A DNA stretch of 32,000 nucleotides from Candidatus Saccharimonadota bacterium. GTDB lineage: Bacteria; Patescibacteriota; Saccharimonadia; Saccharimonadales; UBA4665. Below are positions 16,516 to 32,000 of this stretch, one piece after another. Each line of letters begins with the position of its first letter. The first letter of the stretch is position 1. The stretch is taken from positions 600,001-632,000 of the forward strand of contig CP065016.1 in assembly GCA_016700375.1 (NCBI GenBank). Reading direction: 5' to 3'. The notes under the pieces were generated by a model that saw nothing but the letters and a program-made list of their open reading frames with translations, was not told the DNA's origin and searched no databases. The translations under genes were made by a program, and so were the position numbers.

Positions 16516-16592
16516 TGGTGGAGAAGAAGGGAGTCGAACCCTCGACCTCAGCAATGCGAATGCTGCGCTCTAGCCAACTGAGCTACTTCCCC
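16516..16592 (-). tRNA. tRNA-Ala (anticodon CGC), CCA encoded
   Basis: The minus strand reads GGGGAAGTAGCTCAGTTGGCTAGAGCGCAGCATTCGCATTGCTGAGGTCGAGGGTTCGACTCCCTTCTTCTCCACCA. It folds as a cloverleaf with a G3:U70 pair in the acceptor stem, an anticodon loop TTCGCAT, and a T-loop GGTTCGA. Confidence 0.95.
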
Positions 16593-20991: not shown

Positions 20992-21804
20992 ATGTACATC
21001 TGCATCGATATTGGCGGCACAAAAACACTAGTGGCGAGCGTCACAAGCGAAGGGATTGTTACTGAGTCAGTAAAGTTCCCCACACCGGAAAAATACGAAC
21101 AGTTTCTCCCAGAACTGCAGAAGGCTGTTGAAAGTTTGTCAACAGATGATTTTCGTGCCGGCACAGTTGCGGTACCGGGCACGATTGACCGGAAGAGAGG
21201 GCGTATTAAGCAGCTCGGTAACCGCGAAAGCTGGCAAAATATCCCTGTTGCGCGTGACATAGAGAACATCACTCGGTGCCCCATGCTTATTGAAAATGAC
21301 GCAAAGCTCGCCGGCCTCAGCGAAGCTATGTTGTTAAAAGATACATACGAGCGAGTCCTGTATATAACCATCAGTACCGGTATAGGCATTGGCCTTACAG
21401 TGAACGGACGCATAGATAGTTCTCTTGGCGACGGTGGCGGCCGGACCATGCTGCTTGCGCACCGGGGAAAGCTCACTCCATGGGAAGATTTTGCGTCTGG
21501 AAAAGCAATTGTAAAAAAATACGGGAAAATGGCCTCCGAGCTTGAAGACCCTATTGCCTGGGGCAACATTGCCAGGACACTCACACCCGGGCTCATTGAA
21601 CTCATAGCCGTCTTAAACCCAGAGGTAATTGTTATTGGCGGCGGCGCTGGTCGGTATTTGCATAAGTTCAAAAAACCCCTCGTTGCAGACTTAAGACAAT
21701 ACGAAACTCCCGCCCTTCAAATTCCTCCTATTGTCGTCGCAAAGCGACCCGATGAAGCAGTAATATATGGGTGCTACGACTATGCCCGTCAACACCACGC
21801 CTAA
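20992..21804 (+). CDS. ROK-family sugar kinase (glucokinase-like)
   Basis: MYICIDIGGTKT (phosphate-1), ENDAKLAG and GIGIG are present. GGAGGGA lies upstream of the ATG. Confidence 0.88.
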   Translation: MYICIDIGGTKTLVASVTSEGIVTESVKFPTPEKYEQFLPELQKAVESLSTDDFRAGTVAVPGTIDRKRGRIKQLGNRESWQNIPVARDIENITRCPMLIENDAKLAGLSEAMLLKDTYERVLYITISTGIGIGLTVNGRIDSSLGDGGGRTMLLAHRGKLTPWEDFASGKAIVKKYGKMASELEDPIAWGNIARTLTPGLIELIAVLNPEVIVIGGGAGRYLHKFKKPLVADLRQYETPALQIPPIVVAKRPDEAVIYGCYDYARQHHA

Positions 21805-22261
21805 ATATTCCGACATTTTACCGCGTCTTCAGCGCGATTTTCCAGAACTGTCATTCGTGGAGTCAACGCAATTTTCATGGCACGCCGGCAGGCAGAATAT
21901 TGCATATAATAAAGCACGCTTAGGCGACGAACGAGGGGTATGGGCTATGCTACACGAGTTAGGCCACGCCCTGCTTCGTCACACGGACTACGAGAGTGAT
22001 GTAGAGCTACTGCAAATGGAGATATCTGCCTGGGAAAAAGCTCATGAACTAGCGAAAAAATATGGAGTTTCTCTCGACCAAGATTATATAGAAGACTGCC
22101 TAGACAGCTACCGCGACTGGCTGCATGTACGAGCTACCTGTCCGGCCTGCTTCGAGCGGTCGCTACAAACGACGCGTCACACCTATAGCTGCCACAATTG
22201 CGGAACGGTCTGGCGAGTCACCCGCAGCCGACTCTGCCGACCATATAGAAGGAGGGGCTAG
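21767..22261 (+). CDS. putative HExxH zinc metallopeptidase with a C-terminal zinc ribbon
   Basis: LHELGHALLRH is an ImmA/IrrE-like HExxH motif, and CPACF...CHNCG forms a zinc ribbon. The start is ambiguous (ATG 21767 or 21782) and both overlap the end of the ROK gene. Confidence 0.6.
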   Translation: MGATTMPVNTTPKYSDILPRLQRDFPELSFVESTQFSWHAGRQNIAYNKARLGDERGVWAMLHELGHALLRHTDYESDVELLQMEISAWEKAHELAKKYGVSLDQDYIEDCLDSYRDWLHVRATCPACFERSLQTTRHTYSCHNCGTVWRVTRSRLCRPYRRRG

Positions 22262-23229: not shown

Positions 23230-24135
23230 ACCTGAATCACGAAACTACCCTCATCTGGTAGCCAAGTAAGACTCGTAGATAATGGACAAAGTACCCCTGC
23301 ACACTTCTCGGGAATGAGGTGACGAGGTGCTTGTGCTCTTTGAGGTAGTCAAAGACAGCTTCAATCTTTGGCCTGAGCGTCAATAACAGATGTTGCCAGC
23401 TGGCCATGACTTGTTTTCGTTGCTTGTAATGGGGCGGTGCAACAACAATAGTTTTGTACTGTTCCCAGAGCCGCCTACGCTGTACGCTACCACCGTAGTG
23501 GCTGTCGCCAACGAGTATCCTGGTGTGTTCATTTGCAAGTTGTTCCTCGGCCTGATTGTCGTGCTGGTCTGCTGGCGTAAACACCACCGCACAGAGCCGG
23601 TTGAGATGATCAACACTCGCGTGTAACTTAAAACCATAATGGTAGCCCTGCCAGTTCTTACCGAAAGCAGCAACAGCTTTGGCTACCTTGTGTCGCTCGG
23701 CCCGAATGAGCTTACAGACGGGCAGCATAGTAGAATCCGCGAAACGCACCTCCGACGAGATCTGTAATGTCAGTTGTAGCAGGTAGACGAGTTGTTCTAG
23801 GTTGCGGTGCGCTTGCGCAACAAAGTTCTGGTACTTTGGAAGCTTCGGAAAGTAGTCTGGGTAGTCTCGTTCAATCCATTTGTATAGGTCTTTGAGTGGT
23901 CGGTGGCTTTCAGTCAAACCATCCCAGATGAGGATGGTAATGAGTTCACTGTCGCGCAGTACCGGTGGCCTGCCAGTTTTCCCGACTGCGGTTTGTTGGA
24001 GTGTGTCATCTACCCAAACGTACACGTCTACGATATGCTGTTTTTGTAATTCGCGCATTTGTTTTCTCCTGTTTGTTTTACCACTACAAGAGTAACAGAG
24101 GCGCGATTTACTTTAGGGAGTTTCGTGATTCAGGT
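23230..24135 (-). mobile_element. intact IS982-family insertion sequence (906 bp)
   Basis: There are perfect 17-bp terminal inverted repeats: ACCTGAATCACGAAACT at 23230-23246, and its reverse complement at 24119-24135. A 6-bp direct repeat AATAAC flanks the element (23224-23229 and 24136-24141). It carries a single transposase ORF. Confidence 0.85.
23237..24058 (-). CDS. IS982-family DDE transposase
   Basis: The protein is 273 aa with ADSTMLPVCK, GYHYGFKLH, VGDSHYGG and RPKIEAVFDYLK, which is the IS982/IS4-superfamily pattern. CAGGAG lies upstream of the ATG at 24058, and the stop codon lies inside the left IR. Confidence 0.88.
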   Translation of the reverse strand: MRELQKQHIVDVYVWVDDTLQQTAVGKTGRPPVLRDSELITILIWDGLTESHRPLKDLYKWIERDYPDYFPKLPKYQNFVAQAHRNLEQLVYLLQLTLQISSEVRFADSTMLPVCKLIRAERHKVAKAVAAFGKNWQGYHYGFKLHASVDHLNRLCAVVFTPADQHDNQAEEQLANEHTRILVGDSHYGGSVQRRRLWEQYKTIVVAPPHYKQRKQVMASWQHLLLTLRPKIEAVFDYLKEHKHLVTSFPRSVQGYFVHYLRVLLGYQMRVVS

Positions 24136-24708
24136 AATAACTACTTGCTTGCCCTCGGGCCAAAAACGTACTGTTATTGAGTCAGTGTCGACAGAGATAA
24201 CTTCCAGCGTGCGGTCGTGCAGCATGCTTGACTCACCCGTCAGTCGAAAAGCGTAGCGCGTATTTGGTGGGGCCAGCAGTACATACCCCCCTGGCGGCTG
24301 AGAAGCAGGGTCAGACGAAAGAAATATAGTCTGCTGTCGTAAAAAGAGCTTAGCGGCTTCACCTTCAGTTGGCAACGCAAATGGAGATGCATACTTATTC
24401 TTCGGGAGAGATTGCTGCTTTAGGGGTGAAACCAAATACCCGCATCCAGGCGACAGCACATAGCTCGTCGAACCATCGTTGTGAATAACTGTTGTAAGTA
24501 CGCAGCTTATCTGCCGTATCACCTGCTTGACTTTTACTACGCTAAGAGCATTGACGCCCGCCGGGATACTAAGGACTATGAGCATCAATAAAACCATGGC
24601 CACCATGGTGCCAGGCGTATATTTATATCGCAAACGCGTATAGTCTGTCCATTTTGCTGTGTAGTTTCTGGTGGTGAATAAGCGACAAGTTGTTGGCCGT
24701 TTTTTCAT
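24136..24708 (-). pseudogene. N-terminal fragment of the IS-split membrane protein
   Basis: The start ATG at 24708 overlaps the stop codon of the upstream giant gene in an ATGA arrangement. The N-terminal TM helix is MVAMVLLMLIVLSIPAGV. The present ORF terminates at a TGA supplied by the IS right IR (24130-24132). Confidence 0.65.
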
Positions 24709-27206
24709 TGTGCAAGGATTGTTAATGTTAACCCAAGACTGTACGAGGACGGCATCTGTTCGGCGGGGATTGTTTGGCGCACAGGCACCCCAGTAACATC
24801 CCAGTAACATTCGGTGTTCGAGCCGACCGCAGCGGTTAAAAGATTAACAGAGTCCACACTGCCCTCAACGTAGTTTTCATCAATTCCTTTGGTGACGTTC
24901 GTTATTGAGCAACCAACTTGGGGAGTAATACTGCCGGCAGATGGTTCAACCCGTAGCTTCCCGGCGTACGTATCGGTGTCTGCTCCATCTGCGCACCCCG
25001 GCTGAGTACCTGCCGTGTCATTGAAGTCGTAATGAGCTGTTGCGCCGGGATTATCCCATAACCCTATCGGTCCGGCCGTTGGTGCTACTGAAAGCACCCA
25101 GCTGGCATTTGCCGTCATATTACTTACTCGAATTTTTTGCGCCGGGGCCCCCAATGCTGCGGTACTTTCCGTGCAGTTAAAAATCAGTCCCTGAGTAGCA
25201 AAACTTACCAACGGAGACGCAACGGTAATGCCGCCAGCATCCACAATATCGACCGTAAGCGCACCAGTCGGCGGCACGCGCCACACAGCATAGCGATACG
25301 TACCGCCATTTGTATTGGTTGAGGTACTTGTGCCCACCGTGAAACCACCGGCATTTATACTTGTTATGAGGTTTGCGGCATTGGCTGTGTTCGTAAGATA
25401 CTGTGCGTTACCACCCGTAAGTGTAGATGGCCGCTGCGCCCCAGCAACTGCTGTCGAACGTTTCACCCATACGAGGTCAAACCAAAAAGGCGCCGTCACT
25501 TGTCGCCCCGCAACCCCTGTTCCGGTGTATGTACCGACACTGAAGTTCGTACCCGATTTAAACGCAAACCAGCGGTACAATGATGCACTCGTGTTTGACG
25601 CTGCATTTGTTCCCACGGTAAAACCGTTAGCATTCAGGGACTGTACAACACCTGCCGTTTCCGCCGTGGCGGCGAAGAAACTAGTAAGATCGCCAGCCTG
25701 CGCACTGGTGCGAAATGCCCCAGCAGTTGTGCTATTGCGCTTCAGGGCAACGAAATCAGGCTGAAATGGTATGTCCGCGACCGGACGCGCGGTGAGCCCG
25801 CTGCCATAGTAAACCCCTGTCGCAAAGTCAGCTGCGCCACTGTTCGTATCTGATTCATACGCATTACCAAACGCCTGCCAGTGGTATGTGTTGCCATTCG
25901 TATTCACAACCGTGCTCGTACCCAGGCGAAAACCCGTGGCATCTAGCGAAGTAATACCCCCCGTAAAATCTGCCGTCGCAGAACCCAAGTAAGCTGTCGC
26001 ATCGCCGGGCATCTGACGTATACGAAAAACTGCATGGTTCGCCGCATTGTCTTTTATGAGCACAAGGTCTGGGGCAAAACCGATTCCTGTCACCGACCGC
26101 GCTGCACCGTTGCCAGTGTACGTCCCCTGCGCCATGGTAAAAGACCCGCTCGCGCTCCCAAAACTCGGTGCCCCACCAAATGCAAACCAGTACATCGTGG
26201 TGCCGCTCTCGTTTGTGTTGCTGCCAGCCCCAAGAGTAAAGCCATCAGTTACCATTCCTTGCACCATATTTGTCGCATCTGCCACCGAATCGCTGAGGTA
26301 GCTCGCTAAATTACCGAAGTGTTTATCGGTGTAGATGATTGAACGGCGATTGTTCGCAGTAGCGCTAGTACTGTTTTTTATGACTACCGTATCGGGCTGA
26401 AACCCAAGCCCCGTAATATTCGTACCCGCCGTGACATTGCCGGTGTATGACCCCTGCGCAAACGTACCGCCACCACTACGAAAGGCTATGTAGTTGTACG
26501 TTCCTCCCGTAGCATTATCTGTTGCCCCCACAGTAAAGCCCGTGGCAGTACTGTTTGCTATGTACGCACCGGTTGTGTTTGCAGCAGTTGTCGTGAAAAA
26601 CTCGGTTCTGTTTGCGGCCATAGCAGTTGTGCGAAAATGTGCGCCCACAGCAGTTGAGCGCTTGACTGTAATCATATCGGGCTGAAACCCTGTGGTTATT
26701 GTGCGGCTTGCAGCACCAGTTCCCGTATACGTACCGACACAAAAATAGCCTGTCGCGGAGCAGTCTGAACCACTAAAGGCTTCCCATCGGTACAAAACAT
26801 TGGCATTATTTACGTTCGCTAGCGCCCCCACCGTAAAACCATCGGGCGTATAGGAGATGGCCGTCGCAGTATTGTCTGCAGTGGCACTAAAAAATGCAGT
26901 ATTTGCTGCAGCCATAGCACTCGTTTTAAAAACCCCAACGCCAGCAGTCGTAGACGCCCTAATAATCACAAGCTCCGGCTGAAAGCCCAGACCACTGATG
27001 GTTTTTGAACTACCCGTACCCAGGTAGTACCCCGTGCGCATACTAAAGTTTGCCGCATATGCCTTAGGCGTAATGAACAGTGCAGAAAGAAGTGATAGTA
27101 CTAGTATTTGCACGACCGCAAAAACACCCAGCCTTTGTGAAAGTTTGATACTACCCGAATACCGCTTGTGTGTGTTTCTCTGCATTCTCAACAATCCCAT
27201 AAGCAT
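24705..27206 (-). CDS. secreted surface protein with six tandem ~95-109-aa repeats and a C-terminal WxL-like domain
   Basis: There is a signal-peptide-like N-terminus ...RLGVFAVVQILVLSLLSALFITPKAYA|ANF. The six repeats share G-x-Y-x-G-x-G...GF(Q/A)PD...(I/V)K...GF(T/R)(V/L)G...N...Y-x-(W/Y)-x-(A/V)-(F/W). The C-terminal 184 aa are paralogous to the 203-aa protein. The start is uncertain among ATG 27206, 27200 and 27185. The tracked start at 27356 overlaps the upstream gene by 107 bp and is unlikely. Confidence 0.75.
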   Translation of the reverse strand: MLMGLLRMQRNTHKRYSGSIKLSQRLGVFAVVQILVLSLLSALFITPKAYAANFSMRTGYYLGTGSSKTISGLGFQPELVIIRASTTAGVGVFKTSAMAAANTAFFSATADNTATAISYTPDGFTVGALANVNNANVLYRWEAFSGSDCSATGYFCVGTYTGTGAASRTITTGFQPDMITVKRSTAVGAHFRTTAMAANRTEFFTTTAANTTGAYIANSTATGFTVGATDNATGGTYNYIAFRSGGGTFAQGSYTGNVTAGTNITGLGFQPDTVVIKNSTSATANNRRSIIYTDKHFGNLASYLSDSVADATNMVQGMVTDGFTLGAGSNTNESGTTMYWFAFGGAPSFGSASGSFTMAQGTYTGNGAARSVTGIGFAPDLVLIKDNAANHAVFRIRQMPGDATAYLGSATADFTGGITSLDATGFRLGTSTVVNTNGNTYHWQAFGNAYESDTNSGAADFATGVYYGSGLTARPVADIPFQPDFVALKRNSTTAGAFRTSAQAGDLTSFFAATAETAGVVQSLNANGFTVGTNAASNTSASLYRWFAFKSGTNFSVGTYTGTGVAGRQVTAPFWFDLVWVKRSTAVAGAQRPSTLTGGNAQYLTNTANAANLITSINAGGFTVGTSTSTNTNGGTYRYAVWRVPPTGALTVDIVDAGGITVASPLVSFATQGLIFNCTESTAALGAPAQKIRVSNMTANASWVLSVAPTAGPIGLWDNPGATAHYDFNDTAGTQPGCADGADTDTYAGKLRVEPSAGSITPQVGCSITNVTKGIDENYVEGSVDSVNLLTAAVGSNTECYWDVTGVPVRQTIPAEQMPSSYSLGLTLTILAQ
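25260..27053 (-). repeat. array of six in-frame coding repeats (protein-level tandem duplication)
   Basis: Using tracked-ORF numbering, the repeat boundaries read from the translation are residues 102-207, 208-301, 302-410, 411-513, 514-607 and 608-699. Confidence 0.8.
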
Positions 27207-27249
27207 TAGCGCAAACACAGTATAGCACCCCTGATAATGTTTGCGGCAA

Positions 27250-28842
27250 TTACTTCTTCGCAGAGCGTTTTGCTGGAGTTTTCCGTGGCGCACGTTTAGC
27301 CACCTTTTTTCGGGTGCTTTTTTTTGGTTTTGGCGATTCAGGTTCATCTGCCTCAAGATTCCAAGAACTGCTTAAGGCCGGTACTGCACCGCTATCGGTT
27401 AGAACACCGAGGTTACGCAGTTCTTCGTCGCTTGCGCCTTCGCGCCAGTCCGGGAATTCAGCATCCTCCGGCTCGGGAAATGCCGGATTTGGAACATGCG
27501 GCGGTACAGGATAGCGCTCAGGCACCGGCGCAGAAGGCTGCGTTTGTGCAATTGGCGCCTGCCAGGCGGTTTCAGGCTGTACCGATGAGGGCACAGGGGG
27601 TGGAGGCGCAACTGGCGACGGTTGAGACTGTTCAGCAGCCAGCTGAGGCGGCGCAGCGGCATCAACTACCCAAGAGCCTTTGTGAGCCGTACGTTTGCGC
27701 CGTAAGCGTTTTTTTGGCTGAGGCAGTAACAGCACCTGGCCGTAGTCGATAAGAAATGGCGGCTTGATGGAATTAATTTTGGCAAGCTGCTTCCAATCAA
27801 TCCCATGCGCTTCCGCAATCGACATAACGGTATCTCCCGGTACGACGGTATACTTATGGAGCCGTTTTTGTGCAATGCGGCGCAATTTTCGTCGATATAG
27901 GAACGTAATAAGTGCAAAAATAAGCACAAACGGTACCGCAATTTCCACCGCAAGCGCCTGCCAGGTTGGCATCATAATGAAATAGCCAGTGGCTGCTCTG
28001 ACTTTTCGTTCTTGACCGGTCGCATCACCAATACCAGTATTTGTATCTGAATCGTACGCAATGGAAGTCTGCGCTTTGTATATACCACCCCAAAAAGGTC
28101 GCTTAAACTCAAACGCCCACCCTGTCGTTGCGCCCGCAATAACCGGATAGGTTGCCTTCTGAACTGGCGTCTCCTGGCCAAAAACGCTCCTTAGCTGTAC
28201 GCGCGTCGTCACATCGAGCGATACATTTCCAGTGTTTTTACTGACTGGCGAGACGGTGTAGTTGCCTTTTTCGTTCCGATCTACTACAACCTTTTGTATT
28301 GTCAGTTGTTTTACAATTTTACCTGGAACCGTTATTGCGACTCGTATAGCGTTACGAAAACCAAGCGCAATGCCACCCTCCTTCTTTGAGCCAGTATTTT
28401 TTGTATCTTGTGCAGTAATACAGGCTCCGTGCTCACCCGGACCAGCGTCTTTTGGAGCAGTGATAGTAAAAGGTACGGTCTCGTTTTCTCCTGGCTGTAC
28501 AACAACCTCATTCCGAGAGAGCCGTATCCATTGGCCTACATCTGTCTTCTTCTCGCTATTCTGCTTGCAAGAAAACGAACCATCGACTGCAGCGACAGAG
28601 TCAACCGCATCAATCTTCACCGTTCGAGGTTCTTTTGTGTAGTTGAAGACCCGAACACCATCCTCCACCGTCTCACCACCCTTTAAGGTGTGTATAAAAA
28701 TGCTTCGAGAACGAAGGTTACCAACCTTCGGATTGGCGGGAGCTATGCCGATTGAACCGGCCTGAGCTAAAACTGAAGCATGGGTAAAGAGCAGGATGCC
28801 TACAGCGAGCAGTGGTCCCAACGTTTGCAAGCGTTTTTTCAT
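27250..28842 (-). CDS. DUF916/DUF3324-like (CscA-like) surface protein with a TM anchor, a LysM domain and a Pro-rich/Lys-rich tail
   Basis: The signal peptide is MKKRLQTLGPLLAVGILLFTHASVLAQA. The ectodomain layout (PANP...SIFIHTLKGGE...VRVFNYT...WIRLS...VPFTITAPKDAGPGEHGA...) resembles Firmicute CscA. The TM helix ALAVEIAVPFVLIFALITFLY is followed by RRKLRR, and then comes the LysM motif YTVVPGDTVMSIAEAHGIDWKQLAKINSI...GQVLLLP. Confidence 0.7.
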   Translation of the reverse strand: MKKRLQTLGPLLAVGILLFTHASVLAQAGSIGIAPANPKVGNLRSRSIFIHTLKGGETVEDGVRVFNYTKEPRTVKIDAVDSVAAVDGSFSCKQNSEKKTDVGQWIRLSRNEVVVQPGENETVPFTITAPKDAGPGEHGACITAQDTKNTGSKKEGGIALGFRNAIRVAITVPGKIVKQLTIQKVVVDRNEKGNYTVSPVSKNTGNVSLDVTTRVQLRSVFGQETPVQKATYPVIAGATTGWAFEFKRPFWGGIYKAQTSIAYDSDTNTGIGDATGQERKVRAATGYFIMMPTWQALAVEIAVPFVLIFALITFLYRRKLRRIAQKRLHKYTVVPGDTVMSIAEAHGIDWKQLAKINSIKPPFLIDYGQVLLLPQPKKRLRRKRTAHKGSWVVDAAAPPQLAAEQSQPSPVAPPPPVPSSVQPETAWQAPIAQTQPSAPVPERYPVPPHVPNPAFPEPEDAEFPDWREGASDEELRNLGVLTDSGAVPALSSSWNLEADEPESPKPKKSTRKKVAKRAPRKTPAKRSAKK

Positions 28843-28895
28843 CTTGCTCTTTACTGTACATGCTTTCAATCATTTTTTCTAGAACCGCTTTTGGT

Positions 28896-29507
28896 TTATT
28901 GAGCAATAGCTGAAACAACCATCGTAAGGCTGTAGCTACCATCGGCCTGTTCGGCAGGGATTTTCTGGCTCAACGTGTAACCAGTCAGTTCACCTTCCCA
29001 GGCAGTTGTGCTCGTGTTGTTCATGAGCGTTACAGGAGAAGTGCTACTAAACGCACCGCCAGGCAGTGTGTGTGTAGGAGCATTTGCACCAGCAGTCTGA
29101 GTAAACGTACCGCCACTAATGCTCATCTGACCGTTTGTACAGCCAGAGCCTGCAGCGTCTTTATAGCTATATGTCTCAGAACCATTTGTCCAGTTGTCTG
29201 AAGCTGGGGTCTGAGCGTTGATGTCAACCTTTACACCAGAAAGTACCGGGTTACTAACTTTAACCTTCTGCGAAGCAGTACCAAACGTTGCGGTCTGGGT
29301 CTGACACGAGAAACTAAATGTTGTTGTTGGGAAAGCCACCGCTGGGCTCACAACAGATACACCAGAACCATCGACGATATCAATCGTGAGAGTGCCTGGG
29401 TTGATGACTTGTGAAAGGCTCGTATTTGTCGCGGCAAATGCTGCCGTTGGTAGCAAAACACCAGCTGCGACAAAGAGAGCTACAAGTGCACTAAGCTTTT
29501 TACGCAT
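28896..29507 (-). CDS. secreted WxL-like domain protein (203 aa)
   Basis: The start ATG at 29507 is preceded by AAAGGAG. The signal peptide is MRKKLSALVALFVAAGVLLPTAAFA|A. The mature domain GTLTIDIVDGSG...KIPAEQADGSYSLTMVVSAIAQ is paralogous to the C-terminus of the giant protein. Confidence 0.7.
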   Translation of the reverse strand: MRKKLSALVALFVAAGVLLPTAAFAATNTSLSQVINPGTLTIDIVDGSGVSVVSPAVAFPTTTFSFSCQTQTATFGTASQKVKVSNPVLSGVKVDINAQTPASDNWTNGSETYSYKDAAGSGCTNGQMSISGGTFTQTAGANAPTHTLPGGAFSSTSPVTLMNNTSTTAWEGELTGYTLSQKIPAEQADGSYSLTMVVSAIAQ

Positions 29508-29578
29508 ATGCGTAACTCCTTTTATTTTTATTTGTTTTTTATTTGTAATGCTTTGTGGGACCAAAGCGATACCACTTC

Positions 29579-29735: not shown

Positions 29736-31343
29736 CTACGGCTTCGTGATAACTTCTCGCCAATTCAAAATATCGTAACCACCTGTAATGGGATAACTGG
29801 GGGGTGGCGCATAGTATAGGTTGTAATCATAGTCCGTTGATGTTTGTCGTACGCCGGATATATATCGATTTAATGACGGGCTATAGGCTGCATCACCACA
29901 TGCTCCTCCGCGTGTAAAATTCCATGTCCAATACTGCCTGGTAGCAACGGAGCCGTAATATACAAATTTCTGGTCTGGGTTTACCCAACCGCGCGTGCAC
30001 CGGCTAGAATTAACCTTATACACATCTGGGTATGTCACTGAACCACTTTGAGCGAGTGCTGCAGCGTCGATTTCAAATGTAAATGCCCCAGTTCTTGGAA
30101 TTGCATAGGGAGCAATCAATACGTCATTTTCAGCAACAAAACCGATAGCGTCTGTTCCGTTCTTGGCGCCGTAACGAACTTCACCGGCAATGTTAATGTC
30201 GGCAGCATTGGTGTCATTTCCAAGCCGTCCGGCAGCTATAGTCACACGGCCCGTGAAGGTTGATGCAGTTCGAACCCAGACGTTATCCTCAACAAATATC
30301 ACTCCTGAAGTCGGTAATGCAATTCCCGTTTCTACAACAGTGCGTGTCAGTGCGGTTGTGTAATCGGTCTGCGTATCGTCTTCATTGCTGACACGATATA
30401 GGTCATAGGTATTATTAGCATTCAACTGTATGTAGTAACCCCGACGAGTACTGAATGAACTTGAGCTATAGCGTGGTATGTATGCAGAAGTTCGGGCCGC
30501 TGGCGCAAGATTGCAAGGGTTATTTTGGTTTGCATATCCAGCAGTTGAGGTATCGTTCGCAAAAGCAACTTTTTTCATAGTACATAATGCCCCTGTGACC
30601 TGGTTAAAGTCTATTGTTGGTCGAGGGTAGAGCCAGTTTGATTTGTCGCGAGTTACACAATTTGGGTTAATGACACTCGCACTACACCATACACCGTTTT
30701 TCGTAGAGCCATCACCCCCATAACTTACCTTGGGAACATAGTCATCATTGGCGCTACCAACAGTGTCTGTATTTGGTCCGTCCATATGAACTCCCTGATT
30801 CGAGAATACCGGACCGTTCGCTGTCTCTGAGTCACCAAACCAAAACTCTACATCAGCCAATAGCCCGTAACTCGCAAATGACGCTGCTCCTATCCGAGCT
30901 TCAAGCGTTCTCGTTACCCCATCGTTCGTTTTACCCATTGAGCGTATGGTAGCAACGGTAGAGCCAAAACTGCTTGGTTTAATCCATATCGTAAACGTGC
31001 CTTTTTTCTGAGTATTTGCATCGACGTAATCATGTACGTATGGCCCATAGCCTAGGTTTGCGTCCGGAGTCGCTGGGGTCGTGTTACCGTCCCTATAATC
31101 ACTAGAGTTATGTGCCATATGCCATAGATAATAATTAACTCCGGCTTCGGCGATGTGGAGCGCTTGTTGACGGCCAATGATAATCCCGCTCGAAGTAAGA
31201 TTGTTCATCACCACCATCATGGCCGTAGACGTAATGATTGACATTGCGATAATGAATGACAATACGGTTGGTAGGGTAAAGCCAGCTTCATTATGTGGTA
31301 AAAATTTCGTGCAGTAACCTTGTTTTCTCACCAGCGTCTTCAT
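29736..31343 (-). CDS. large PilX-N-like minor pilin / putative pilus-tip protein
   Basis: The N-terminus NEAG|FTLPTVLSFIIAMSIITSTAMMVV is prepilin-like but lacks Glu5. It is followed by GRQQALHIAEAGVNYYLWHM, which resembles PilX_N. The C-terminal ~380 aa are beta-rich with several Cys residues. The start is ATGA-coupled to the upstream pilin gene. Confidence 0.7.
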   Translation of the reverse strand: MKTLVRKQGYCTKFLPHNEAGFTLPTVLSFIIAMSIITSTAMMVVMNNLTSSGIIIGRQQALHIAEAGVNYYLWHMAHNSSDYRDGNTTPATPDANLGYGPYVHDYVDANTQKKGTFTIWIKPSSFGSTVATIRSMGKTNDGVTRTLEARIGAASFASYGLLADVEFWFGDSETANGPVFSNQGVHMDGPNTDTVGSANDDYVPKVSYGGDGSTKNGVWCSASVINPNCVTRDKSNWLYPRPTIDFNQVTGALCTMKKVAFANDTSTAGYANQNNPCNLAPAARTSAYIPRYSSSSFSTRRGYYIQLNANNTYDLYRVSNEDDTQTDYTTALTRTVVETGIALPTSGVIFVEDNVWVRTASTFTGRVTIAAGRLGNDTNAADINIAGEVRYGAKNGTDAIGFVAENDVLIAPYAIPRTGAFTFEIDAAALAQSGSVTYPDVYKVNSSRCTRGWVNPDQKFVYYGSVATRQYWTWNFTRGGACGDAAYSPSLNRYISGVRQTSTDYDYNLYYAPPPSYPITGGYDILNWREVITKP

Positions 31344-31939
31344 AGGTTATTCTTCTTGTTCCGCAGGAGCACCTGCACATTTATATCTTGTGAACGCGCG
31401 TTTTCAAGCTGCGTAGCAAGATTTATTTGTATGGTTTTGACCACGCTTAAATCAGTAACTGGAGTGGCAAGAGCTGCGCCAACTGCATTCGTATAGCGAA
31501 ACAGCTTGCCGCCACTCGCTTGATAGAAGTTGTCAATAATAACGAAGCTTTTCTTCTTATCTGTTTGCAGCGTGCCAAGTGGGGGGTTTGCACTCATCGG
31601 GGTTAAGTCGGCGTACAAACGCTTGGTCGCACCGTTAACAACATAGTATCTCACTTGCGAAACATAGACGTCAGACGGGTAGAAGTATGTGTAGACCGTG
31701 AGGTCATTATCGCCAGCGCTACTAATACTCGTGGTCCCTCGTAGAACATTTGCGATTCTATCGGCCTGGCTACTCAGCTGACCAAAGCTTGTTGCTTGTT
31801 TTTGCAAGTCAAGATAGCTAACAAGAGTGGTTTTAAAAACGACAAAGAATATGACTGAAAGCGCACCAATGAGTGCTATGACGACCACCATTTCAAGAAT
31901 GGTGAAACCCTGCTCTTCCCGCTGCTTAGGGCTTAACAC
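31340..31939 (-). CDS. type IV pilin-like protein (prepilin-type N-terminal cleavage/methylation domain; minor pilin)
   Basis: G|FTILEMVVVIALIGALSVIF is the canonical class III signal. I chose the start GTG at 31939 because it has GGAGG 5 nt upstream and gives a short leader, MLSPKQREEQG. The tracked ATG at 31987 would give an atypically long leader. Confidence 0.8.
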   Translation of the reverse strand: MLSPKQREEQGFTILEMVVVIALIGALSVIFFVVFKTTLVSYLDLQKQATSFGQLSSQADRIANVLRGTTSISSAGDNDLTVYTYFYPSDVYVSQVRYYVVNGATKRLYADLTPMSANPPLGTLQTDKKKSFVIIDNFYQASGGKLFRYTNAVGAALATPVTDLSVVKTIQINLATQLENARSQDINVQVLLRNKKNNL

Positions 31940-32000
31940 GAAAACCTCCAAGCGGTATGGTTGGCAAGACGAGCGTACCATTTGCATTCTGTATCGTAAC
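31926..32000 (-). CDS. 3' end of a further ORF entering from beyond the window (possible additional pilin-operon gene)
   Basis: The frame is open from the window edge, reads ...VTIQNANGTLVLPTIPLGGFRVKP, and stops at TAA (31926-31928). It overlaps the GTG start of the next gene by 14 bp. Only 24 codons are visible. Confidence 0.3.
   Translation of the reverse strand, partial: VTIQNANGTLVLPTIPLGGFRVKP

Follow-up and report, generated by a model that had tools for sequence, protein, structure and literature searches.

In this study we analysed a 32,000-nucleotide stretch of a Candidatus Saccharimonadota genome (contig CP065016.1, positions 600,001 to 632,000; hereafter the window) and, within it, a minus-strand gene for a secreted repeat protein (24705..27206). 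We show that the repeat region of this protein consists of six tandem units, which are best read as two copies of the catalogued domain DUF7483 with three units each, and that the same triplet of units occurs in tail-fibre-like proteins of phages. We lean towards the view that the protein is a wall-associated ligand-binding protein, an adhesin or a targeting module, whose triplets would bind a ligand on a cell surface.

An earlier reading of the same DNA (the original prediction) had described six tandem units with a common series of short motifs, and all of them are present, on the minus strand. Translated in the plus direction the region 25260-27053 contains stops throughout; it corresponds exactly to residues 102-699 of the minus-strand open reading frame (ORF) 24705-27356. 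Anchored on the motif G-x-Y-x-G, the units span ORF residues 106-204, 205-298, 299-407, 408-510, 511-604 and 605-699, are 94-109 residues long and share 26-44% of their residues in pairwise comparison. On the DNA the unit boundaries place U1 at 26745-27053 (including an ANFS lead-in), U2 at 26463-26744, U3 at 26136-26462, U4 at 25827-26135, U5 at 25545-25826 and U6 at 25260-25544. Scored against a hidden Markov model (HMM) of the other five, each unit reached 69-91 bits, compared with at most 10.3 bits for the best of 200 shuffles per unit, so the internal periodicity goes far beyond chance. The nucleotide identity between codon-aligned units is 37-53%, and Tandem Repeats Finder detected no array at the repeat region of the DNA, as is expected at this level of identity. 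Hence the array is an ancient duplication, as the original prediction had supposed from the divergence of the DNA, and an assembly artefact is excluded. The residues conserved between the units (glycines, aromatic residues, prolines and asparagines) look structural. An invariant Cys-x6-Cys pair (C98 and C105 in the numbering of the mature protein) is found at the junction of U1 and U2 only.

The module had been thought to be an unrecognised one, a claim that does not hold. The repeat region matches the Pfam family DUF7483 (PF24299) in four stretches (E 3.6e-41, 141.8 bits; cut-off 27), and the stretch over units 1-3 (ORF residues 106-397) runs from position 6 to position 330 of the 330-position profile. 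Unit 4 scores 27.1 bits against DUF7361 (PF24060), a model of 95 positions and thus of one unit, just under its cut-off of 29.5 bits. In the PHROGs collection of phage protein families the region matches phrog_24898, annotated as ‘tail fiber protein’, in six stretches (E 1.4e-44, 153.8 bits) and also phrog_19943, annotated as ‘virion structural protein’. A precomputed PF24299 match is present on every orthologue listed. By its sequence the repeat protein is therefore a further member of a catalogued, experimentally uncharacterised family. Both DUF7483 and DUF7361 are domains of unknown function without a solved structure in our sequence or fold searches. The region in the window is a direct member, with units 1-3 filling the 330-position model, but here two copies of DUF7483 are joined in one chain to a C-terminal domain without any Pfam match. 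The family is large: an exhaustive profile search against 1.84 billion representative proteins, clustered at 50% identity, returned 18,790 clusters at E 0.001 or better, 9,684 of them at 1e-10 and 1,721 at 1e-30. Our literature searches found no paper on DUF7483 and none linking Saccharibacteria and WxL proteins, and a search for tail-fiber surface proteins of Saccharibacteria returned only an unrelated meeting report. Nor is the family named in those passages of a transposon sequencing (Tn-seq) paper on Southlakia that we searched.

Several observations indicate that the natural building block is not the single unit but the triplet, so that the ‘six repeats’ are best read as two DUF7483 domains, the first comprising units 1-3 (26136..27053, the best stretch of the PF24299 match) and the second units 4-6 (25260..26135, with the further PF24299 stretches and the PF24060 similarity on unit 4). 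One is the length of the Pfam model itself, which holds three units. Another is the size of the arrays: among 149 new representatives listed by the profile search, 170 of 188 contiguous arrays contained three (49 arrays), six (106), nine (3) or twelve units (12), and 18 had other sizes. Viral sequences point in the same direction. In 36 loci from IMG/VR three-unit arrays dominate (26), and many of these end no more than about 10 residues from the C-terminus of their ORF, which in tail fibres is the site of the receptor-binding tips. Predicted structures of viral proteins superpose on 305-320-residue stretches of the model of the window protein with a root-mean-square deviation (rmsd) of 3.7-4.1 Å, compared with 9-16 Å for alignments over six units (Foldseek against BFVD); the geometry within a triplet is thus likely to be conserved and that between triplets less so. 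Finally, the conservation of the orthologues drops within each triplet, with median unit identities to the window protein of 0.67, 0.62 and 0.49 for U1-U3 and of 0.64, 0.56 and 0.53 for U4-U6. A duplication pattern pairing U1 with U4, U2 with U5 and U3 with U6 was sought in the pairwise identities and was not evident, so the triplet reading draws on the evidence above and not on unit-to-unit similarity. Among the representatives there are also proteins of up to ~4000 amino acids with 9, 12 or 18 units (P0121-P0143), proteins whose triplets are separated by spacers of ~240-370 residues (P0141, P0142, P0143 and P0145) and one protein of 7419 residues that carries a hexad (P0234).

The predicted structure is in line with a repeated and well-defined fold. 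AlphaFold2, supplied with 111 orthologous sequences, modelled the whole mature protein (782 residues) with a mean predicted local distance difference test score (pLDDT) of 94.1 and a predicted template modelling score (pTM) of 0.85, values that for a protein of this length argue for a defined arrangement of the units and not for loose beads. The model shows about eight strands per unit, as a rule together with one short helix, and the pLDDT of the first domain is mostly above 90. Unit 4 modelled alone gave eight strands as well (pLDDT 91.7, pTM 0.83). When this single unit was compared with the PDB by Foldseek, nothing was found at E 0.001 or better; the best match had an E-value of 0.21 and a TM-score of 0.36. 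The weak matches are to jelly-roll, galectin, cupin and phage-tail types only, and proteins of these types are also among the weak top results for the whole model. Beta-sandwiches of these types and small phage tail proteins such as 8ck1_B of phage Carin-1 share with the unit an all-beta architecture of about eight strands, but at the values given the resemblance is one of fold class only. We also searched the PDB by sequence with the complete protein and with profiles of the unit and of the C-terminal domain, and obtained matches at chance level only. The sole match of the whole model below E 0.001, chain 9k09_U of the cyanophage A4 portal-tail complex, was rejected for its TM-score of 0.10 and rmsd of 30 Å, and the cyanophage A4 paper describes no such module. 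From its length we would guess this chain to be the nozzle protein. An identity of the unit with a common adhesin repeat was rejected too: the confidently modelled unit finds no Ig-like, Cna-B or fibronectin fold in the PDB at E 0.001, and a Pfam scan of the repeat protein shows no Ig-like or Cna-B family.

The original prediction had suggested a resemblance to tail-fibre-like proteins of small podoviruses. This suggestion is borne out, both by the PHROG profiles and by the searches described here. With tblastn against GenBank phages and with the unit HMM we found four phages that carry the module: Roseobacter phage CRP-406 (29 kb; 3+3 units in a large ‘virion structural protein’), phage C72C1 (35 kb; 6+3 units, likewise in a large ‘virion structural protein’), Pelagibacter phage HTVC103P (gp62, 345 residues with exactly three units) and Synechococcus phage S-B68. 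Electron microscopy has shown HTVC103P to have the morphology of a podovirus (bioRxiv 10.1101/2019.12.14.876532). In the records of C72C1 and CRP-406 the module genes adjoin tail and tail-fibre genes upstream of lysis genes; in CRP-406 the order is tail and tail-fibre genes, module gene, lysin gene. Foldseek against BFVD returned 34 viral matches at E 0.001 or better (best 2.7e-36), one of them annotated ‘DUF7483 domain-containing protein [uncultured Caudovirales phage]’, and stand-alone viral proteins of 110-117 residues match one unit with a TM-score of ~0.7. The tail-fibre-like proteins (PHROG 24898/19943, HTVC103P gp62, CRP-406, C72C1 and BFVD entries such as A0A6J5QL19) thus resemble the window protein in the ~100-residue unit, in the grouping into triplets and in the predicted three-unit body. 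They differ in that the triplet is usually single, C-terminal in a long protein and encoded next to tail genes, whereas the window protein has two triplets at its N-terminus, behind a signal peptide, and is encoded in a chromosomal operon; the sequence identity between the two sides is only ~25-40%. The putative role of the triplet in phages is itself assigned by annotation (‘tail fiber’, ‘virion structural protein’). The proposal that a receptor-binding-type fold has been multimerised on a bacterial protein therefore stands in part. The homology to phage proteins is well supported, but receptor binding is read from annotation, and while the bacterial array is real, multimerisation is not special to the bacterium, as phage proteins carry 3, 3+3 or 6+3 units.

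The gene product itself appears to be exported. The ORF lister had started the gene at a TTG at 27356, which overlaps the upstream gene. Since the closest orthologue (P0001, 94% identity) begins with MLMGLLRMQ, which aligns to an ATG at 27206, this ATG is most likely the real start. The resulting precursor has 833 amino acids followed by the stop codon. Its first residues (27054..27206) read as a signal peptide, which has an extended and charged N-region, VFAVVQILVLSLLSALF as its hydrophobic core and a likely cleavage site at AYA|ANF. The layout is the same in all orthologues, where A-x-A/ANF(S/Q)M(R/Q)TGYY comes after a hydrophobic leader. The mature protein would comprise ~782 residues. ‘Giant surface protein’, as it had been called, is hence too large a term: the adjacent minus-strand ORFs are separate genes with signal sequences of their own.

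We found 110 full-length orthologues (100% coverage), and every one of them has six units, so that no variation in repeat number was seen among the related genomes sampled, a comparison that the original prediction had proposed. Six paralogues of ~1360 residues have twelve units and represent a duplicated hexad. When compared with the window protein, each unit is closest to the one in the corresponding position. The identity of the orthologues ranges from 50 to 94% and is even along the protein, and hardly any stretch is hypervariable. At the genome level the top matches are metagenome-assembled genomes (MAGs) of Saccharimonadales/Saccharibacteria (96% identity in locus L005) and the complete genome CP064992.1 (86%). 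The GTDB species set yielded 132 loci, and the best 80 of them come overwhelmingly from Patescibacteria, among them Saccharibacteria, Paceibacteria/Parcubacteria, Dojkabacteria, Falkowbacteria, Magasanikbacteria, Zambryskibacteria and Curtissbacteria. Ten orthologue contigs are labelled Gammaproteobacteria, Pseudomonadales, Margulisiibacteriota or Omnitrophota (L029, L033, L040, L046, L055, L060, L064, L067, L072 and L079); these are probably mislabelled or mis-binned MAGs. Many relatives match only residues 1 to ~594, and it follows that the hexad is combined with differing C-termini. All of 35 sampled fusion proteins match DUF7483 and 11 match DUF7361. Their partner domains are without exception of extracellular types: Big_5 (6 proteins), Peptidase_M23 (3), MG2 (3), DUF11, fn3, Laminin_G_3, CARDB, Calx-beta, CBM96 and the sorting tail of the type IX secretion system (T9SS). 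The three fusions to Peptidase_M23 suggest that the hexad can target a lytic enzyme to a cell wall.

In the window protein the hexad is followed by a beta-rich C-terminal domain of ~185 residues (24708..25259) with four invariant cysteines (C627, C687, C715 and C749), presumed to serve in anchoring or complex formation. This domain (ORF residues 697-883) is related to a second protein, whose gene lies two places upstream, a small secreted protein from a 222-aa ORF (28896..29564, minus strand; likely start MRKKLSALV...) that consists of a signal peptide and a paralogue of the domain only; BLASTP gives 32% identity over the whole mature length of this neighbour (E 2e-19). The C-terminal domain has 319 homologues, mostly stand-alone proteins of 210-245 residues, of which the few with named sources come from Saccharibacteria or Peregrinibacteria; no Pfam domain is annotated on the 120 that were listed. 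Between the two genes lies a third (27250..28869, minus strand) for a protein of 539 residues. It has a signal peptide, a WxLIP_PGBD domain (PF06030, 33.2 bits; cut-off 27.3) and a transmembrane segment, followed by a LysM domain (E 1.3e-11) and a Pro/Lys-rich tail. In the complete genome CP064993.1 the three genes stand in the same order (small paralogue, WxLIP/LysM protein, hexad protein), and the 539-residue protein has the same architecture. The WxLIP-like gene is conserved in 31 of 77 related loci. Where the C-terminal domain is shared and the flanking sequence suffices, most loci keep the cassette, in Saccharibacteria, Paceibacteria and Dojkabacteria.

This arrangement recalls the WxL clusters of Firmicutes, reportedly represented by the Csc clusters of Lactiplantibacillus and the WxL loci of Enterococcus. 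As in those clusters, a small and a large secreted protein share a C-terminal domain and are encoded beside a protein of the WxLIP/DUF916 type. In contrast to them, the shared C-terminal domain in the window has no WxL match, no LPXTG partner was seen, the WxLIP-like protein has an additional LysM domain and a basic tail, and the genome is that of a Patescibacterium. An identity with WxL was not detected: Pfam scans of 22 C-terminal domain sequences gave no match to WxL (PF13731) even at E-values up to 10, and WxL is absent from the annotations of the 120 homologues listed. We keep the comparison as an analogy of gene context.

Taken together, the repeat protein is probably secreted to the surface of this Saccharibacterium, a member of the Patescibacteria or Candidate Phyla Radiation (CPR), and the two DUF7483 copies make up its N-terminal 600 residues. 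Each copy is composed of three predicted eight-stranded beta-sandwich sub-repeats of ~100 residues in a fixed arrangement, the same triplet that forms the C-terminal end of tail-fibre-like virion proteins in marine podoviruses and many uncultured phages. On the bacterial protein the two triplets would lie at the N-terminal, outward-facing end and be displayed at the surface, and the C-terminal domain would dock the protein into a wall-associated complex with the WxLIP_PGBD/LysM neighbour, in the manner of a WxL cluster. The triplets would then most likely bind a cell-surface ligand, probably a glycan or a wall polymer, and the protein would serve its epibiotic lineage as an adhesin or targeting module. 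We favour binding as the function because of the signal peptide, the cysteine pairs, the anchor-like C-terminal domain with its wall-associated partner, the terminal position of the triplets in phage proteins and the extracellular nature of the fusion partners. Surface display, anchoring through the C-terminus and ligand binding are all steps that we infer.

Some of our data weigh against this proposal. The function of DUF7483 itself is taken from the annotations of related phage proteins, and no ligand-binding site could be identified in the units, whose common residues look structural. The even conservation of the orthologues is unlike that of many adhesins and of the receptor-binding tips of phages. 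The three-dimensional arrangement of the triplet is deduced from the statistics of Foldseek superpositions. In the 539-residue partner LysM follows the transmembrane segment, so that a simple topology with the N-terminus outside would put it in the cytoplasm, which is odd for such a domain. Lastly, the WxL analogy is one of gene context, because the C-terminal domain shows no PF13731 match and its listed homologues carry no Pfam domain.

The main alternative is a different function in the same envelope. The protein might be a structural subunit of a surface layer (S-layer), lattice or sheath, whose rigid hexad tiles the cell surface and whose cassette partners anchor it to peptidoglycan. The rigid and confident multi-domain model, the fixed number of position-specific units in all 110 orthologues, their even and fairly high conservation without hypervariable tips and the partner with WxLIP_PGBD and LysM would all suit such a subunit, and cryo-electron microscopy of ultra-small CPR cells from groundwater is reported to have revealed S-layer-like envelopes. 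However, the Pfam scan shows neither an SLH nor a CWB2 anchoring domain, and the hexad is fused elsewhere to partners as varied as Peptidase_M23, a T9SS tail and Ig-like domains, with phage copies standing at the end of fibre-like proteins. Such varied partners and the terminal position in phages are more easily understood if the hexad is a portable module for binding than if it builds a lattice, and we consider the structural role unlikely. Less probable still is that the units are passive spacers without a binding role of their own, which keep another functional part at a distance from the wall like the Ig-like or fibronectin stalks of other adhesins. Tandem beta-sandwich repeats are a classic stalk design, and the residues common to the units look structural. 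However, the mature protein offers no further candidate for a functional domain, since the hexad is joined only by the C-terminal domain, and that domain is also found by itself as a small protein. Moreover, the units are not interchangeable, each position being separately conserved and the number never varying; a single unit has no match to Ig-like, Cna-B or fibronectin folds; and in phage proteins the triplet is terminal and not internal.

The strong matches to ‘tail fiber’ and ‘virion structural’ profiles and to viral structure models could also mean that the gene belongs to a prophage or a phage-derived element and encodes a genuine tail fibre. This was rejected on gene context and is largely refuted. 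Housekeeping genes fill the remainder of the window (class II ribonucleotide reductase, FtsZ, FtsA, Map, Adk, PriA, Def, Fmt, IF-2 and S1). Among the window ORFs scanned none was seen to encode a capsid, portal, terminase or tail protein, and in the complete genome CP064993.1 the orthologue likewise has the genes for S1, IF-2 and Fmt on its downstream side. The cassette moreover recurs across several groups of Patescibacteria, and the repeat protein has a signal peptide of the Sec type. We regard a tail fibre in this sense as scarcely credible.

If the favoured reading of a ligand-binding surface protein is carried further, a more far-reaching idea arises, which we offer as speculation and would not ourselves expect to hold in full. 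The DUF7483 triplet might be a pseudo-trimeric receptor-binding knob in a single chain that has been exchanged between phages and Patescibacteria, and that the latter present in two, four or six copies, sometimes fused to a hydrolase, from a wall-anchored complex in order to recognise and hold their hosts; with its 18,790 clusters the family would then be a main host-recognition system of the CPR. Little is known of host recognition and attachment in Patescibacteria beyond type IV pili and a few adhesins from Tn-seq (PMC10633639, PMC11623550). DUF7483 is a very large, structurally confident and experimentally untouched family, common to Patescibacteria and to the distal ends of phage fibre-like proteins; our analysis adds that its units are organised in triplets, that it is spread across Patescibacteria and that the repeat gene sits in a WxL-like cassette. 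If the triplets indeed bind ligands they would provide a concrete candidate for host recognition and a handle for predicting host range, and the same recognition hardware would be at work in viruses and in parasitic bacteria. The triplet reading and the cassette also define constructs that can be tested: one triplet, the hexad, and the C-terminal domain with its partners.

Directly downstream of the repeat gene lies a gene for ~192 residues starting with MKKRPTT... (24130..24708, minus strand), with one hydrophobic segment and without a family match. The two genes overlap by four nucleotides, the ATG of the second and the TGA of the first sharing the sequence ATGA (caATGAaaaaa at 24705-24708), an overlap also present in CP064993.1 (locus L004) that suggests translational coupling. 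The downstream gene is poorly conserved, with tblastn matches in only four of 77 loci. Still further downstream a DDE transposase is encoded at 23237-24058 on the minus strand (DDE_Tnp_1_3, E 1.6e-26), and insertion sequence elements (rve_3 and DDE_Tnp_IS66) also flank the orthologous cassette in CP064993.1. On the upstream side the cassette is directly preceded by two pilin-like genes on the minus strand (29736-31343 and 31340-31987). The first encodes 535 residues with a GFTLPTVL-type N-terminus and has tblastn matches only in the closest relatives (L005, L007 and L057); the second encodes 215 residues with an N_methyl motif and has matches in L007 and L057 and a weak one, of 30%, in L031. 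NCBIfam holds no family for the pilin-like protein, nor for the repeat protein, its small paralogue or the downstream protein. ARAGORN and Rfam detected a single RNA gene in the window, a tRNA-Ala (CGC) at 16516-16592 on the minus strand. An ORF of 164 residues on the plus strand (21767-22261) contains an HExxH-like motif, HELGHALLRH, together with two CxxC pairs, and may encode a small zinc metalloprotease or a regulator.

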